DNA of 63,979 nt, counting the filler, from Thermoplasmatota archaeon (GTDB taxonomy: Archaea; Thermoplasmatota; E2; JACPAO01; JAHFTW01): assembly GCA_041623215.1 (NCBI GenBank). It is 4 parts of 4 records of this genome, joined end to end, with 100 filler letters (N's around TTAATTAATTAA, not from the genome) between each part and the next. Parts side by side here need not be neighbours in the genome. Positions count along the whole stretch, not along the records: positions 20,654 to 41,028 come from JBFJXH010000019.1; 3 more parts are not named here. One strand, written 5' to 3'. This document shows positions 24,348 to 39,809 of this stretch, piece by piece. Numbering within the stretch: the first letter of the stretch is position 1; the number at the start of each line of letters is the position of its first letter. The notes under the pieces were generated by a model, which saw only the letters and a list, made by a program, of their open reading frames with translations, ran no database searches and was not told the origin of the DNA. The translations under genes were made by a program, and so were the position numbers.

Positions 24348-24854
24348 TTAATACACCGTGACGGCGCGCACGCCTTGGACGCGCTGCAAGTCGGGCACGA
24401 GGTCGCCCGTGACGGCCGCCTCCGTCACCACAAAGAGCCTCGGTTGATCCGTAAAATCAGGGTCGTCTACGATAGCTTGCCGGATGCTATGGCCATGTTC
24501 CGCAATGACCCGGCTCACCCCGGCTAGAATCCCCGGCCGGCTCGCATTTGTGGGAATGATTTCGATAACGCCGAGCCCGAGCGGCGGCGCCGCATCCTTA
24601 AGATGCATGGTCGGAGCAAAACGCGTGAAGGCTTGCGCCAATTCGGCATCTTCCAGAATGGTTCGAATGGTCGCCTGGACGATGCGCCGGTCCACGTTTG
24701 CAGCACGCCCGACAGCCGTGTCCGCCAATTCAATGGGTCCGGCGAAGATTTTGTGGTCGGCCGGATTGATGCGAAAGCCATGATGAATCATGAGCTTCAC
24801 CACCCGCTCTTGGGCGGGGTAGCGCCGGAAGTGCTCAATCAGCCGGTCCCACAT
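24348..24854 (-). CDS. ACT-domain regulator of amino acid metabolism (archaeal)
   Basis: F.RYPAQ.RV, VDRRIV..T, LGLGVIEI, PGILAGV....IRQAI.DDP. Confidence 0.85.
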   Translation of the reverse strand: MWDRLIEHFRRYPAQERVVKLMIHHGFRINPADHKIFAGPIELADTAVGRAANVDRRIVQATIRTILEDAELAQAFTRFAPTMHLKDAAPPLGLGVIEIIPTNASRPGILAGVSRVIAEHGHSIRQAIVDDPDFTDQPRLFVVTEAAVTGDLVPDLQRVQGVRAVTVY

Positions 24855-33270: not shown

Positions 33271-34676
33271 AAGTGCTCAAGTTCGGTGGAGCAGCCGTGC
33301 GCGACGCCGCCGGCATGCAACGCGTCGCAACGATTGTGGCCGCCACCCAAGGCCCGCGCGTCGTAGTGACCAGCGCCATGCACGGGGTCACAGACCGCCT
33401 GCAAGCAGTCCTGGAGCGCGGCCCGCTCGAGGAGAGCAGCGTCTTCGTCCTGGTAGATGAATTGCGTTCGCGGCACTTGGAAGCCTTGGCAACCTTATGC
33501 CCGGGGGGAGACAACGAGGCAAGCTATGCCGTGGACACCGGCCTCGAACGATTGGAACGACTACTGTACGGCATCGCCTACACGCAGGAGATTACGCCGC
33601 GCCTGCACGACCTCGTACTGTCCTTCGGTGAACGCCTTGCAGCGCCGGTCCTGGCGGCCGCGCTCCGAAGCGCCGGCTGTCCGGCACGCGCCTTTGACGG
33701 CGAGCACGCAGGCATCCTTTCCCTTGGGCCGTTCGGCAACGCACGACCCGACTTAACCAACCTCAAGGACGCAGTCAACGGCAATCTCCGGACCGTGGCC
33801 GAGGCCACCCAACCGGTGGTGCCGGTCGTAACTGGATTCTACGGCGTGGACGCTGCCGGCGATGCCACGCTGTTTGGCCGCGGCGGTAGCGACTACGTGG
33901 CTGCGCTGCTTGGCTACGCCCTTGATGCCGAGGCGGTTGAGCTATGGAAGGATGTGGCTGGCTTTTTGACGGCCGACCCCAACGCCGTCCCGGACGCTCG
34001 CCTGATTCCAGAAATGGATTACGAGGAAGCCGCAGAGTTGGCCAACGTGGGTGCAAAAGTGCTGCATGCACGCTGTGTTGAACCAGTCCAGGGCGTCGGC
34101 ATTCCCATTCACATCCGGTGCTTCGCCGAACCGGATGCCGCAGGCACCGTCATTGGCCGCGGCGCTCAACCGGCCCCAGCACTGGTGCGCGCAACCGCCT
34201 GCCGACGCGGCTTGGGCATCCTTCGCCTGCATGGCCCCGGGATGGCCCACACCCCAGGGGTCGCAAAACGCGTTTTTGATGCCTTGAGCGCGGCACGCGT
34301 TAATGTCCTCAACATGGCGACCAGCCAGGCAACCTTTGCGTTGCTGCTTGCCTCCGATGATTTGGATCGCGCCAACCGTGCGTTGCAACCCCTCGTCGGC
34401 GGCGTGATTCAAAGCATGGAGGCCCTGCCAGACCGGGCCCTCGTGTGCGTCGTAGGAAAAGGTCTGGGCGAACGACCCGGCAGCGCCGCCGACATTCTCG
34501 ACGCGGTGGCCCAAGCCAAGGTCAACATCGAAATGATTAGCCTCGGCGCCAGTGACTTGGCCATTGATTTCATCATGCAAGACAAAGGATCATCGGCCGC
34601 CTTGCGCGCCATCCACGATCGCTTCCTCAACGGCAACGTGAAGGCAATTGCCACATCGTCGGAGGCCCAAGCATGA
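33267..34676 (+). CDS. lysC: Aspartate kinase with two ACT domains
   Basis: VLKFGG, VVVTSAM, SFGERL, GRGGSDY, GAKVLH. Confidence 0.93.
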   Translation: MKVLKFGGAAVRDAAGMQRVATIVAATQGPRVVVTSAMHGVTDRLQAVLERGPLEESSVFVLVDELRSRHLEALATLCPGGDNEASYAVDTGLERLERLLYGIAYTQEITPRLHDLVLSFGERLAAPVLAAALRSAGCPARAFDGEHAGILSLGPFGNARPDLTNLKDAVNGNLRTVAEATQPVVPVVTGFYGVDAAGDATLFGRGGSDYVAALLGYALDAEAVELWKDVAGFLTADPNAVPDARLIPEMDYEEAAELANVGAKVLHARCVEPVQGVGIPIHIRCFAEPDAAGTVIGRGAQPAPALVRATACRRGLGILRLHGPGMAHTPGVAKRVFDALSAARVNVLNMATSQATFALLLASDDLDRANRALQPLVGGVIQSMEALPDRALVCVVGKGLGERPGSAADILDAVAQAKVNIEMISLGASDLAIDFIMQDKGSSAALRAIHDRFLNGNVKAIATSSEAQA

Positions 34677-35728
34677 CCACCAAGATTCCCGTGGCGGTGG
34701 CTGGCGCAACGGGCGCCGTTGGCCAGCGCTTCATCCAATTTCTGCACGACCACCCTACGTTTCAGATAACGGCGCTGGCGGCAAGCGACCGGAGCGCAGG
34801 ACGCGCCTACCGTGACGCGGCGAACTGGATTCTCGACACGCCCATGCCCGATGCCATTGGTGCACAAGCAGTGGTTGGCCTCGAAGATGTTCTTTCGGAC
34901 CCGGCGGTCCGCGTTGTCTTCAGTGCGCTTCCAAGCGCTGCTGCCAGAGAATTGGAGCCCCGCTACGCGCAGGCGGGCAAGGCTGTGTTCACCAACGCGT
35001 CGCCGCATCGCATGGCCTCCGGCATCCCACTGCTGATTCCGGAAGTGAACCCCGAGCATCTTGACATGGTGCGCGACCAAGCCACCTTCCCTGCCGGCGG
35101 GTTCATTGTTGCAAACGGCAATTGCAGCGGCATTATTCTGACGCTCGCCTTGGCCCCGCTGCACCGTGCCTTTGGCCTTGAAACCGTCCACGTCACCACA
35201 CTGCAAGGCTTGAGCGGGGCCGGCTACCCGGGCGTCAGTGCCCTTGATGTGGTGGACAACGTGGTGCCGTTCATTGGTGGCGAGGAAGACAAACTGGTCG
35301 AAGAGCCCCAGAAAACACTCGGCGCTGTAGACGGGTCCGCCGCCGACTTCCAGGTTTGGCCAACCTGCACGCGCGTCCCGGTGCGAGAGGGTCACCTCGA
35401 GTGCGTCCACGTGACCCTTCGGGCGGACGCCGACGAGGCGGCCATTCGCGCGACCTTAGCCAATTTCCGCGGCCCAGACGACGTGATGTCCCTGGCCATG
35501 GCCCCTGCCGCCCCGATTCAGGTTACCACCGACGTCGATCGGCCGCAGCCACGACGAGACCGGGACAATGGCAACGGCATGGCCATCACCGTCGGCCGCA
35601 TCCGCGTTGATGGCCCCCGCCAGGTCCGCTTCGTCGTCCTTGGCCACAACACAGTGCGGGGAGCGGCGGGGCAATCGGTGCTCAACGCCGAATATGCGGT
35701 AGCACGCGGCCTCGTGGCGCCAAGCTAG
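34673..35728 (+). CDS. asd: Aspartate-semialdehyde dehydrogenase (archaeal type)
   Basis: GATGAVGQRF, NGNCS, LSGAGYPG, HNTVRGAAG. Confidence 0.95.
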   Translation: MTTKIPVAVAGATGAVGQRFIQFLHDHPTFQITALAASDRSAGRAYRDAANWILDTPMPDAIGAQAVVGLEDVLSDPAVRVVFSALPSAAARELEPRYAQAGKAVFTNASPHRMASGIPLLIPEVNPEHLDMVRDQATFPAGGFIVANGNCSGIILTLALAPLHRAFGLETVHVTTLQGLSGAGYPGVSALDVVDNVVPFIGGEEDKLVEEPQKTLGAVDGSAADFQVWPTCTRVPVREGHLECVHVTLRADADEAAIRATLANFRGPDDVMSLAMAPAAPIQVTTDVDRPQPRRDRDNGNGMAITVGRIRVDGPRQVRFVVLGHNTVRGAAGQSVLNAEYAVARGLVAPS

Positions 35729-35769
35729 TCGCACAAGCGACAAATACCGGGCGCGGCAGTGCTTGCTTG

Positions 35770-35817
35770 ATGAGGACACACCGCCGCGTCCCACCGCATG
35801 CCCATTTCGGGGCGTGA
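35770..35817 (+). CDS. Putative his-operon leader peptide MRTHRRVPPHAHFGA
   Basis: 15-codon ATG..TGA uORF with 3 His codons, ending 39 nt before the hisG ATG and embedded in a nested stem-loop. Confidence 0.5.
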   Translation: MRTHRRVPPHAHFGA

Positions 35818-35856
35818 GCGCGGCGCCGCCTTTGGTCCTCTCTGCGATGTGAGTGA

Positions 35857-36723
35857 ATGACCCTACGCTTGGCGATTCCCAACAAAGGCCGTCTCTCCGA
35901 CGATGCCGTGGCTGTGCTACGCCGAGCCGGCATCCGTCTCGAAAGCAGCAGCGAACGGCAATTGCAGGCCACGGCCCTGGATGGCCGCCTGCAAATCCTG
36001 TTCGTACGCGCTAGCGACATTCCGGGCTTCATTGCCAACGGCGCCGTCGATTGCGGCATTACCGGCTCGGACGTGGTTGCCGAATCGGGCCACGCCCTAG
36101 ACCGATTGGTGGACCTAGGCTTCGGCGCCTGCCGGCTTGTCATGGCTGTCCCCAACGAACATGCCGCCACCTCATCGGCCGACCTGCCCGACGGCACTCG
36201 TGTCGCGACGAGTTTCCCCCACCTTGCCAAAAGCCACTTCGAGCAACTCGGCAAAAAAGTCCGCGTGGTGGAGGTATCGGGCGCTTGCGAGGTGACACCC
36301 GCCGTGGGCGTCGCCGACGCCATCCTCGACTTGACGAGCAGCGGCAGCACGCTGCTTCAGAACCACCTGCGCGAAATTGACACCGTTCTCACTTCCACTT
36401 GTGGCCTCTTTGCGCGCCCCCCCACGGGCCGCGAGGAGCCAGACCCTGAACGCGAACGCCTCCGATTCGCATTGGAGTCCGTCGTCCAAGCCCGTGGCAA
36501 GCGCTACCTCTTGGCAGACCTACCGCGCACCCAACTCGACCAGGTTCGGTCCTTCCTGCCTGGGCTAGCCGGCCCCACCGTGGTAGACTTAGCCGGCCGC
36601 GACGATTTGGTGGCCATTCAGGTCGTCGTGGACGAAGCCGATGTCTATGACGCTGTCCACCAACTCAAAGACCTCGGCGGCCAAGGAATCCTCATTGTCC
36701 CAATTGATCGCCTCGTACCCTAA
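35857..36723 (+). CDS. hisG: ATP phosphoribosyltransferase (long form)
   Basis: AIPNKGRL, RASDIP, GITGSD, SGACE, DLTSSGSTL..N.L and C-terminal regulatory domain. Confidence 0.96.
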   Translation: MTLRLAIPNKGRLSDDAVAVLRRAGIRLESSSERQLQATALDGRLQILFVRASDIPGFIANGAVDCGITGSDVVAESGHALDRLVDLGFGACRLVMAVPNEHAATSSADLPDGTRVATSFPHLAKSHFEQLGKKVRVVEVSGACEVTPAVGVADAILDLTSSGSTLLQNHLREIDTVLTSTCGLFARPPTGREEPDPERERLRFALESVVQARGKRYLLADLPRTQLDQVRSFLPGLAGPTVVDLAGRDDLVAIQVVVDEADVYDAVHQLKDLGGQGILIVPIDRLVP

Positions 36724-36727
36724 CCTC

Positions 36728-38020
36728 ATGTCTCGCATCATTGAACCCCAAGATTTGCCAACCGACCCCGCCGAGTGGTCGCCCTGGACCGAGCGGGCGC
36801 AAGCCGTGCCTGAGGAGGTCCGCAAAAAGGTCCGCACCATCGTGGATGACATCGCCGAGCGAGGCGACCGTGCCTTGTCACAGTGGTCCGAGCAATTCGA
36901 TGGCATCCCCGCACGCATCGTTCCGACCGAAGAATGGCACAAAGCGGCCGACGGCTGCCCCAAAAGCGTCGCCCAAGCGATTGACGAAAACCACGAGCGA
37001 ATTCGAGACTTCCATGCACGGCAGGCGCCAACAGCGGACGAATTCGAGGCCACGCCGGGCGTACTACTTGGGCGCCGCCCGGTGCCCTTGGATGCCGTAG
37101 CATGCTATGTCCCTGGGGGTCGAGCGCAATACCCCAGCACGGTCCTCATGACGGTTACACCGGCGGCGATTGCCGGCGTGGGCCGCATTGTGGTCACGAC
37201 TCCTCCCACCCATGACGGTAGCGTGGACCCCGTTGTTGCCTACGCGGCCAAGGCGGCAGGCGCAACCGAGATGTTTGCGGCAGGTGGTGCCCAAGCCATT
37301 GCGGCGTTGGCCCACGGAACGCAGACCATTGAGCGCGTGCAGGCAATTGTCGGACCGGGCAATGCTTTCGTCACCGCGGCCAAGAAGCACGTCAGCGACC
37401 TCGTCCGAATTGACGCGCCGGCCGGCCCCTCCGAACTCCTTGTCCTAGCGGACGCCGGCGCGCCAGCAGGCCCGATTGCATGGGACCTTCTGGCCCAAGC
37501 AGAACACGACCCAGACGCCCAAGTCCTTCTTGTCACCGACGACGCTACCTTAGCAGATGGCGTGGCCGACGAGCTGATGGAAGGATTGCCCAAGGAGCGC
37601 CGGGCCCGCATTATCGACAAGAGCCTTCGAAACCACGGCGCCATTCTGGTGGCCAGCGACATGGCCGAGGCGGTAGCCTTCACCAACGCGTACGGCGGCG
37701 AACACGTTGCCGTAGTGACCGCCGACCCCTTGGCTACGGCGAATCAAATTACCGCAGCGGGCAGTCTTTTCTTGGGCCCCCACGCGCCCGTTACCCTGGG
37801 CGACTATGGGTCCGGCACCAACCATGTCTTGCCTACGATGGGCTTTGCGCACCAACGCGGCGGCCTGGCCGTCGATGACTTCGTCCGCTGGATTACATGG
37901 CAACAGGTCACGGCGGACGGATTGGCGACGTTAGCGCCCTCCGTGACCACGCTGGCGGATGCCGAGGGTTTGCACGCACACGCTCGCGCCGTCACAAGAC
38001 GACTCGAGGACAGCCCTTGA
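36728..38020 (+). CDS. hisD: Histidinol dehydrogenase
   Basis: YVPGG, GGAQAIAAL, GPGNAFV, AGPSE, QAEHD, GDYGSGTNHVLPT. Confidence 0.96.
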   Translation: MSRIIEPQDLPTDPAEWSPWTERAQAVPEEVRKKVRTIVDDIAERGDRALSQWSEQFDGIPARIVPTEEWHKAADGCPKSVAQAIDENHERIRDFHARQAPTADEFEATPGVLLGRRPVPLDAVACYVPGGRAQYPSTVLMTVTPAAIAGVGRIVVTTPPTHDGSVDPVVAYAAKAAGATEMFAAGGAQAIAALAHGTQTIERVQAIVGPGNAFVTAAKKHVSDLVRIDAPAGPSELLVLADAGAPAGPIAWDLLAQAEHDPDAQVLLVTDDATLADGVADELMEGLPKERRARIIDKSLRNHGAILVASDMAEAVAFTNAYGGEHVAVVTADPLATANQITAAGSLFLGPHAPVTLGDYGSGTNHVLPTMGFAHQRGGLAVDDFVRWITWQQVTADGLATLAPSVTTLADAEGLHAHARAVTRRLEDSP

Positions 38021-39117
38021 CCGACGGGCCCGATTCTGACCGCGCAGCCCGCGTCGCCGCGTGGACCCGCCAGGCCGTGCAAGACTTGCAGCCCTACTAT
38101 CAAGCGCCGCTGCAAGGCTCGCCCCTTCGCCTCGATCAAAACACCAACCTGCTTGGCCCCAATCCAGTTTTGCAAGCAATCCAGGTGCAAAACCTAGGCG
38201 TAGACCAGTACCCAACACGCGACAGCGACATCTTGCGGGCGGCCCTGGCGCGGCATCATGGCCGTGGTTTGGCCGCCGAAAACTTTGCCTGCACGAATGG
38301 TAGCGACGAGGCCCTGGACCTCCTTTGTCGGACCTTTACCGAGCCCGGGTGCACGTTGGCAACGACACGGCCCGGCTACTCCCTGTACCCGTTCTATGCC
38401 AAAGTCCACGACCTTGCTTTCGAAGACGTTCCTCTCGCCGGCTCGTTTGGCTCATGGCGCCTTGACGTTGACCGCTTGCTCGCAGCTGCGGCCCGCCTGA
38501 CCATTGTAGCGTCCCCCAACAACCCCACAGGCAACGCCTTTGCGACCAACGATTTGGAACGCTTGGTCCAGGAGTCACCAGGCATTGTGGTCATTGACGA
38601 GGCGTACATCGAGTACGCAACCGACCGCAAGTCCTTCCTGCCGTACGTTGAGCACTTTGACAATTTGGTCGTGCTACGGACGTTCAGCAAGGCGCACGGA
38701 TTGGCTGGCCTTCGCGTCGGCTACCTCGCCGCCAATAGCGACTTGATGCAGCGCCTGCTGCTTGCCAAACCACCGTACAACCTCAATCTCATTGCCGAGC
38801 ACGCCGCAGCAGCCAGCCTCGACGAGCCCTGGGTGGCACGCGGCGTTGCCACCGTGCAAGCGGAGCGCGAGCACCTGGAGGAGGCCCTGCGCCAGCGCGG
38901 CTTCAAGGTGCAGCCAAGCGACAGCAATTTCCTCCTGACCCTACCACCCATTGGCCACGACGCGGGAGCGTTGTATCTTGGCCTCAAACAACGGGGCATC
39001 CTGGCCCGGACCTTTCCGAACAAGCCCATGGTGCAGGATACCATTCGTTTCACTGTGGCGGGGCCGGACGAGACCTCGAGACTGCTGCATGCGCTCGATG
39101 AGGTGCTTGTTTCGTGA
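38017..39117 (+). CDS. hisC: Histidinol-phosphate aminotransferase
   Basis: NGSDE, SPNNPTG, DEAYIE, RTFSKAHGLAGLRVG. Confidence 0.94.
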   Translation: MTDGPDSDRAARVAAWTRQAVQDLQPYYQAPLQGSPLRLDQNTNLLGPNPVLQAIQVQNLGVDQYPTRDSDILRAALARHHGRGLAAENFACTNGSDEALDLLCRTFTEPGCTLATTRPGYSLYPFYAKVHDLAFEDVPLAGSFGSWRLDVDRLLAAAARLTIVASPNNPTGNAFATNDLERLVQESPGIVVIDEAYIEYATDRKSFLPYVEHFDNLVVLRTFSKAHGLAGLRVGYLAANSDLMQRLLLAKPPYNLNLIAEHAAAASLDEPWVARGVATVQAEREHLEEALRQRGFKVQPSDSNFLLTLPPIGHDAGALYLGLKQRGILARTFPNKPMVQDTIRFTVAGPDETSRLLHALDEVLVS

Positions 39118-39809
39118 CCGAGCCTGAACAGCGCGGCGCGGCGGTTGGCGAGGCTGGATCAGGTACCCCGTGGGCCATCTGGGACTACGGTGTTGGGAAC
39201 CTGCATAGCCTACGAATGGCACTCGAGCGAGCTGGCGCCCGTGTGGAGGTAACAACGAACGCGGACCGTTTTACCAACGCCCATGTGGCGGTCCTTCCAG
39301 GCGTCGGGGCGTTTGGCGCCGTTATGGATAGCCTAGAAGCGGTTCGAGACGGCTTGCGAGCCCGGCACGAAGCTGGGCGCCCGATTCTCGGTGTTTGCAT
39401 CGGGCACCAGGTTCTGTACGAAGGCAGCGCCGAGGACCCAGAGCACACGGGCCTGGGGCTCGTGCCTGGTCGCGTTGAGCGCTTGCCTGGGAGTGCCCCG
39501 AAAATTCCCCACATGGGCTGGAACACGCTGGAGGATTGCGCGGGCTTGCTGGCCCCTTGCCAGGATTCCTACGTGTACTATGTCCATTCCTACGCAGCCC
39601 CTCTAAAACCATCGGCGCCCGGAGCCTCTGACCGTCCGGCGGGCTCATGGCAGATGCTAGCCACCACGACCTACGGCGCGCCTTTTGCAGCTGCAATTAG
39701 GGCGGGAGAAACGGTAGGCGTCCAGTTCCATCCCGAGAAGTCGGGGGAGACGGGTGCAAGAATCTTGTCGTCGCTGGTCGAGCGATGGGGTTCCAGGCCA
39801 GGCCTGTAG
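39114..39809 (+). CDS. hisH: Imidazole glycerol phosphate synthase glutaminase subunit
   Basis: DYGVGNL, LPGVGAF, GVCIG.Q, PHMGWN, YYVHSY, QFHPEKS. Confidence 0.95.
   Translation: MTEPEQRGAAVGEAGSGTPWAIWDYGVGNLHSLRMALERAGARVEVTTNADRFTNAHVAVLPGVGAFGAVMDSLEAVRDGLRARHEAGRPILGVCIGHQVLYEGSAEDPEHTGLGLVPGRVERLPGSAPKIPHMGWNTLEDCAGLLAPCQDSYVYYVHSYAAPLKPSAPGASDRPAGSWQMLATTTYGAPFAAAIRAGETVGVQFHPEKSGETGARILSSLVERWGSRPGL

Follow-up and report, generated by a model that had tools for sequence, protein, structure and literature searches.

Does the short gap ahead of the histidine operon of a Thermoplasmatota archaeon hold a leader through which ribosomes gauge histidine, and, if so, what would such a gauge control? 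Leader-peptide attenuation is a textbook bacterial device. In the passages of a 2010 survey that treat its occurrence, no groups beyond Proteobacteria, Actinobacteria and Firmicutes were known to use it (PMC2965389). A 2021 review on coupling in archaea nowhere uses the word attenuation, and the pertinent passages of two archaeal Ribo-seq papers raise uORFs merely as a possibility; the small-ORF tables of Haloferax and Methanosarcina Ribo-seq studies may list such leaders. Our literature search, which included exact phrases and left subscription papers mostly outside its scope, found no archaeal leader-peptide attenuator. The leader described here, from a window of 63,979 nucleotides made up of four joined parts of one genome, is thus likely, to judge from its sequence, to be a novel case of bacterial-style leader-peptide control before an archaeal his operon.

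A histidine-codon leader ahead of hisG

The gap between asd and hisG measures 128 nt, as previously reported, and the whole region lies within one contig (Table 1). The genes asd, hisG, hisD, hisC and hisH were all named via NCBIfam. Which gene stands upstream of hisG differs among relatives, asd being so placed in the window. An archaeal host is indicated by an RFC large subunit and a TrpY-family regulator encoded in the window, and HisG is 61-68% identical to named records titled Thermoplasmatota. The TrpY-family gene (24351-24854, minus strand) is divergent from an apparently leaderless aromatic operon on the plus strand (24959 onward), which runs from ADH synthase to chorismate mutase/prephenate dehydrogenase and then to aspartate kinase and asd.

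Table 1. Coordinates of the his leader and flanking genes in the window
Feature	Position	Strand	Basis
asd (upstream neighbour, outside the element)	34673..35728	+	NCBIfam naming
CAAATA, TATA-like; predicted promoter element for a leaderless transcript that begins at the uORF ATG or close to it	35741..35746	+	sequence, A/T peaks and promoter score
Putative leader uORF of 15 codons with His codons 4, 10 and 12	35770..35817	+	sequence and orthologous uORFs
Predicted outer helix, 5' strand (partner 35835-35840)	35772..35777	+	sequence; identical in same-genus locus L002
Predicted middle helix, 5' strand (partner 35819-35825, just past the uORF stop)	35782..35788	+	sequence, fold
Predicted inner hairpin bearing His10 and His12 (35797-803 / 35810-16)	35797..35816	+	sequence, fold
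Predicted post-stop arm (middle helix 3' strand)	35819..35825	+	fold predictions
Pyrimidine-rich tract with predicted outer helix 3' strand	35829..35843	+	predicted window structures
Probable SD element GTGA, 4 nt before the hisG ATG	35849..35852	+	sequence; same spacing in same-genus L002
hisG, ATP phosphoribosyltransferase, first gene of the operon	35857..36723	+	TIGR00070 over cut-off
hisD, hisC, hisH	36728..39809	+	abutting or 4-nt overlaps

The uORF that the earlier note had read in this gap translates as described, with its three His codons in place. Since a single short ORF says little, orthologous upstream regions were compared, as that note had proposed. HisG was found in 31 of 61 genomes, and 30 loci were returned, of which 28, the window included, had upstream DNA; the two without it were left out of the leader count. 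All 28 order relatives with upstream DNA (27 from the main set plus G005, the 31st HisG genome, spanning three families of the order) carry an 11-18-codon uORF before hisG with His codons near its end. Histidine accounts for 85 of 354 uORF codons (24%); the two remaining frames have 6 and 9 of 354, and the proteome has 2.6%. It is encoded by CAU in 67 of these 85 cases, while hisG itself prefers CAC (126 of 148). A His codon lies two codons ahead of the stop in 20 of the 28 leaders and three codons ahead in 23; the window leader is atypical, its last His standing four codons ahead. Residues other than His drift without conservation, yet the frame and position of the ORF are kept. A metagenome locus with the same leader type (L110) is placed inside the HisG clade of the order. 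In 19 of 27 leaders, and in 10 of the 11 from genomes lacking the termination factor FttA, uORF and hisG share one reading frame.

A strict leader rule, fixed after the leaders had been seen and with one locus omitted for an unassigned start, was passed by 27 of 27 hisG loci and by 3 of 744 other genes of this genome, and a fully blind rule by 20 of 28 hisG leaders and 8 of 716 other genes. Outside the His codons the sequences are so divergent that alignment was possible in small groups only, and these kin are not independent of one another.

Promoter spacing fits the start of the uORF. The TATA-like CAAATA noted before is present; A/T peaks occur at -29 to -23 before gene starts of this genome and at -37 to -24 before family uORFs, and for 28 of 29 leaders a frame-blind promoter score placed the start in the His frame, compared with 53 of 101 candidates overall. 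The uORF is likely translated without a leader of its own, from a predicted start at the 5' end of the transcript.

A short ORF enriched in codons for the end product, directly ahead of the biosynthetic operon, is one mark of amino-acid-sensing leader-peptide attenuators, and on this comparative evidence a real, conserved cognate-codon leader is present in archaea. The core of the earlier proposal, a His-codon leader as candidate archaeal attenuator, has thus held, because the orthologous leaders all carry the uORF; the FttA mechanism attached to it has not (see below). That ribosomes would read this leader as a histidine gauge is highly probable.

Outside the order, 58 hisG upstream regions were read, picked across families from the 118 hisG-positive of 401 genomes. 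The blind rule detected a His-pair ORF in 7 of 8 loci of family f14 and in one of two each in f31 and f25, all Thermoplasmatota families, and in 2 of 13 in f10, a chance-like rate; families f35, f21 and f34 offer candidates by eye only. The leaders of these other families form a second His-leader type (L240-L245, L247-L249, L251, L255, L278), in which a G-rich stretch is followed by the His pair, at about codon 11-14, and then by 4-12 further codons. Classical his attenuators with a conserved HHHGPTGRG-like leader occur in Gemmatimonadota and other bacteria (L049-L075; metagenome L088-L156). In unrooted trees the HisG clade of these bacteria sits amid Thermoplasmatota HisG, a possible archaea-to-bacteria transfer; import of the leader from bacteria is not supported by these trees.

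The cognate pattern recurs at a second amino-acid gene: a Thr-rich ORF lies at promoter distance before thrB in 4 of 8 loci, none of them in this genome. In L182-L185 this ORF has 17 codons with TTT-RR-TT-R as its conserved core, and a hairpin spans its stop. A His uORF precedes hisS in only 1 of 29 cases. No conserved Trp leader was found before trpE (22 of 24 loci with upstream DNA, three of which look like paralogues), no Arg leader before argG, and no conserved aromatic leader before ADH synthase, where a loose rule gave 11 scattered matches in 30. Aspartate kinase, examined for a cognate leader, is mostly operon-internal, ilvB was not found over cut-off in 37 genomes, and the leuA family was not found in this genome. 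Two Arg-rich short ORFs that emerged from the short-ORF scan of this genome, at G000:C26:4719 before a 2-hydroxyacid dehydrogenase-like gene and at C26:11218 before carA, were considered as cognate leaders and look like chance.

The genes trpE, argG, hisS and that for ADH synthase appear leaderless and lack a cognate ORF, several having operator-like boxes or a divergent regulator. Upstream of trpE (L158-L175), a conserved CAATGCTTAT-like box that may serve as promoter or operator precedes an apparent TTG start by about 33 nt, and argG (L189-L213) has a conserved near-palindromic box TGTCC...TTTAGACA between itself and a divergent gene, a candidate arginine-regulator operator. With leader ORFs at some genes and operator-like boxes at others, this lineage appears to use both leader peptides and transcription factors.

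Fold of the leader and a predicted translational switch

The three nested helices proposed earlier all pair, the inner one including a G-U pair, and together they form the minimum-energy structure of 35729-35860 and of 35770-35856, though not of 35741-35856. The accompanying warning that GC-rich DNA folds easily was well placed: taken by itself the window is ordinary, with a fold z of -0.45 (35741-35870), a local z of -1.8, a pair count equalled in 2 of 40 shuffles, and a low rank for its uORF in the genome-wide short-ORF scan (p 0.013). It is conservation that lifts the window fold beyond chance. Leaders of family f1 form a long hairpin in which the uORF pairs with the stretch past its stop and the His codons lie near the apex; most family leaders have an equivalent helix between uORF and post-stop arm, made of different letters, and they fold better than shuffles (mean z -2.1; 11 of 24 below -2). 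Families f2 and f3 lack this cross-stop hairpin (3.9 bp, against 10.1 bp when shuffled), and in the wider leader set the hairpin is not above shuffles. Covariation is thin: eight small alignments yielded 7 pairs with both partners changed and 10 with a single partner changed, beside 50 broken and 114 invariant pairs. A search of Rfam, including its His_leader model, gave no match at gathering score and one chance match at E 4.6.

At the other end of the leader, the SD-like GAGTGA (35851-56) of the earlier note is present as a motif and abuts the ATG, so that GTGA, which we take as the SD candidate from the general SD consensus, is the better choice. The same note had suggested that a stalled ribosome might hide or expose the hisG start. 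This survives weakly and in altered form, since freeing the uORF does not open the start. In our switch model a 28-nt ribosome footprint was moved codon by codon and the cost of opening the hisG start was computed. The predicted cost is high with the ribosome over codons 2-8 and near the naked-RNA value at the last His codons: a ribosome on codons 2-6 raises it by 1.8 kcal on average relative to the last two His codons, by more than 0.5 in 20 of 24 leaders, with shuffle controls giving differences of 0.8 and 0.9 kcal. In the window, the pyrimidine tract is predicted to pair with the hisG SD region once the 5' end of the uORF, including its start, is covered; with a ribosome at His10 or His12, that 5' end is predicted to hold the tract instead. 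The naked leader RNA is predicted to be as open at the hisG start as the stalled state, and with a queued second ribosome or the whole uORF covered the start is predicted to be more closed (+2.2 kcal, 18 of 24).

Simpler versions fared less well. A first model gave no rise in SD unpairing on stalling (12 of 27), and direct release of the SD through a stalled ribosome was not supported across the family by structure models. In the f14 leaders, anti-SD pairings drawn by eye were mixed, 5 of 9 being easier to open, one of these five with a mis-set start; the corresponding calculation did little better than shuffled uORFs, and footprint-only models do not make the His position the open one.

These predictions outline how the gauge might act. 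When histidine is plentiful, ribosomes would keep loading and passing codons 1-8. By covering the hairpin's 5' strands (35772-35788) they would free the stretch 35819-35843, with the post-stop arm and the pyrimidine tract, to pair with the hisG SD and start, and hisG, with the coupled hisD, hisC and hisH, would stay low. When His-tRNA runs short, the ribosome would remain at the end His codons, the 5' strand would recapture the arm and tract, and hisG would be translated. Because the His codons adjoin the stop, the signal is probably the dwell time of the ribosome rather than its position. Control at the level of translation is also what remains by elimination, given that FttA, Rho and RNase J were not found. 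We place the combination of a gauge with a hisG translation-start switch, in which the start stays open while a ribosome is parked on the final His codons, just short of an even chance; the translational output in particular is given about half the probability of sensing. The odds on the switch are modest: the modelled effect is small, shuffled controls show half of it, and the kin are not independent. The switch also presupposes that the RNA can pair around a bound ribosome and that the 5' end stands empty.

Rival outputs and the missing termination factor

The main rival keeps the same histidine gauge and makes its output factor-independent pausing or termination: once the ribosome has gone the hairpin would zip and polymerase would stop in the U/C tract behind it, unless a stalled ribosome prevented this. 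Archaeal intrinsic termination at poly(U) is described in the relevant passages of PMC8116511, a run of at least three T occurs in the spacer of 24 of 28 leaders as against 68 of 187 same-strand gaps of this genome (A runs, 1 of 28), and in several leaders the run directly follows the hairpin. The runs are short, however, three T in the window and 3.2 on average in FttA-lacking genomes; a rule for hairpin plus U-run terminators, which many bacterial his leaders passed, found none in L001-L030 (28 with upstream DNA); and the accessibility of the tract responds inconsistently to ribosome cover, rising in 11 and falling in 7 of 24. We consider this output unlikely.

Another ribosome-dependent output of the same gauge, through mRNA stability or a hand-over of ribosomes from uORF to hisG, is improbable to a slightly greater degree. 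His codons adjoining the stop, which make dwell time the likely signal, would suit it, and the 19 of 27 uORFs in frame with hisG are unexplained under the other models; read-through from uORF to hisG is not required, however, because in the window an in-frame stop immediately precedes the ATG of hisG. RNase J, on which a stability route might draw, was not found in any of five genomes and is rejected as effector, as is Rho, likewise not found in five of five. Simple re-initiation would raise hisG when histidine is plentiful, which is the wrong sign, and leader gaps of 30-65 nt exceed the 10-13 nt peak of bacterial re-initiation given in the pertinent part of PMC4833913.

The main proposal of the earlier note, that FttA/aCPSF1 cleaves at the pyrimidine tract unless a ribosome shields it, fails for this genome. 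According to the passages of PMC11616081 that bear on it, the factor has a preference for U-rich RNA, and competition between it and the ribosome is hypothesised. Here the aCPSF1 family model recovered a distant paralogue only, and a second search of 63 genomes, with the aCPSF1 of a family member as query, found none in 12 of 32 family genomes, namely this one (88% complete) and 11 relatives, leader-bearing ones included. The lacking set comprises all of genera g1, g2, g4, g7 and g9 (genomes 72-93% complete) and is not one clade in the HisS tree. By comparison, aCPSF1 was found in the other 20 family genomes, in all 25 of the more distant genomes and in 5 of 6 others of the order, the single miss there being 70% complete. 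It usually lies after the proteasome beta gene and ahead of pantoate kinase; in this genome those two genes stand about 180 nt apart on one contig (G000:C83:4262-4447), and in 8 of 9 further genomes (L371-L379) they are 0.1-1.1 kb apart, too short for a 1.9-kb aCPSF1. The gene is thus absent in place in 9 of the 10 genomes checked, G007 having a different neighbourhood, and a search for its KH domain found it in none of four lacking genomes but did find it in the one control.

Since the leader persists with and without FttA, the factor is not its required effector here, and by its gene content the FttA route is largely excluded for this genome; for the leader described here the route is very improbable. 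In the 20 family genomes that have FttA, the spacers and T runs of the leaders are longer, and the factor may act in those genomes. Exposure of an FttA site under ribosome cover, also modelled, was inconsistent across leaders. The absence of aCPSF1 is significant in its own right, for the factor is described as universal and essential in archaea in the passages of PMC7515710 and PMC8653824 that address this, and its absence in place means that in these archaea transcripts must be ended by other means.

An action of the peptide itself, such as a small His/Cys metal-binding peptide, draws on the roughly fivefold enrichment of Cys codons in the uORFs (4.8% against 0.9%), yet is very improbable, given peptides of 11-18 residues with nothing but His conserved, the synonymous CAU bias, the position ahead of hisG and the Thr counterpart ahead of thrB. 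A chance ORF in a GC-rich, easily folding spacer, to which the unremarkable figures for the window alone would point, has next to no probability beside 28 of 28 relatives against 3 of 744 control genes and the specificity of frame and codon.

Among the outputs considered for the histidine gauge, the translational switch is the most probable, at modest odds. More broadly, Thermoplasmatota may control amino-acid operons by leaders that ribosomes read, with neither terminator nor termination factor and with the parked ribosome as the ON state, in a family several of whose genera lack FttA/aCPSF1; this reading, which takes in wide use of His leaders and of Thr leaders in some genera, we would rate, as a whole, somewhat below even. 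If true, the leader would offer a convenient reporter with which to study how transcription and translation are coupled and how transcripts end where FttA is lacking. As a compact 116-nt element with many natural variants, it makes ribosome-mediated amino-acid control in archaea, and the step at which it acts, directly testable.

Comparison with known systems

Like the bacterial hisL (Rfam His_leader), the archaeal leader is a His-codon ORF directly before hisG with the same presumed signal. In the bacterial his leaders used for comparison the His run lies mid-peptide, with 10-17 codons to go to the stop, and a GC hairpin and U run follow, whereas the archaeal ones have 2-5 His near the stop, a spacer of 30-65 nt, no such terminator and no Rfam match. 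A partial archaeal precedent may exist in the Methanothermobacter trpY leader, where a very short Trp-codon mini-ORF was reportedly suggested by Xie and Reeve in 2005 to tune translation; that ORF reportedly comprises two codons and precedes a regulator, unlike the hairpin leaders of 11-18 codons before a biosynthetic operon described here.

FttA/aCPSF1 termination shares a U-rich tract downstream of a short translated region, as described in parts of PMC11616081 and PMC7515710, whose relevant passages hold no amino-acid-sensing, regulated use of FttA; it differs in its factor, which was not found in this genome. A closer parallel is offered by the leaderless polycysteine short ORFs of mycobacteria (Ms5788A), which, according to the portions of 10.1101/834739 that concern them, stand first in the transcript, contain at least two cognate codons, lack an intrinsic terminator and are proposed to control the downstream start via a stalled ribosome. 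The host here is an archaeon and the amino acid histidine. In Ms5788A the stalled ribosome directly blocks an SD-hiding structure, as the same portions have it (10.1101/834739), a direct form that is unsupported in the archaeal family; the wiring here would be indirect, because covering the uORF is predicted to close the hisG start. By analogy, then, it is the mycobacterial leaderless polycysteine ORFs that the archaeal leader would most resemble in the way it works.
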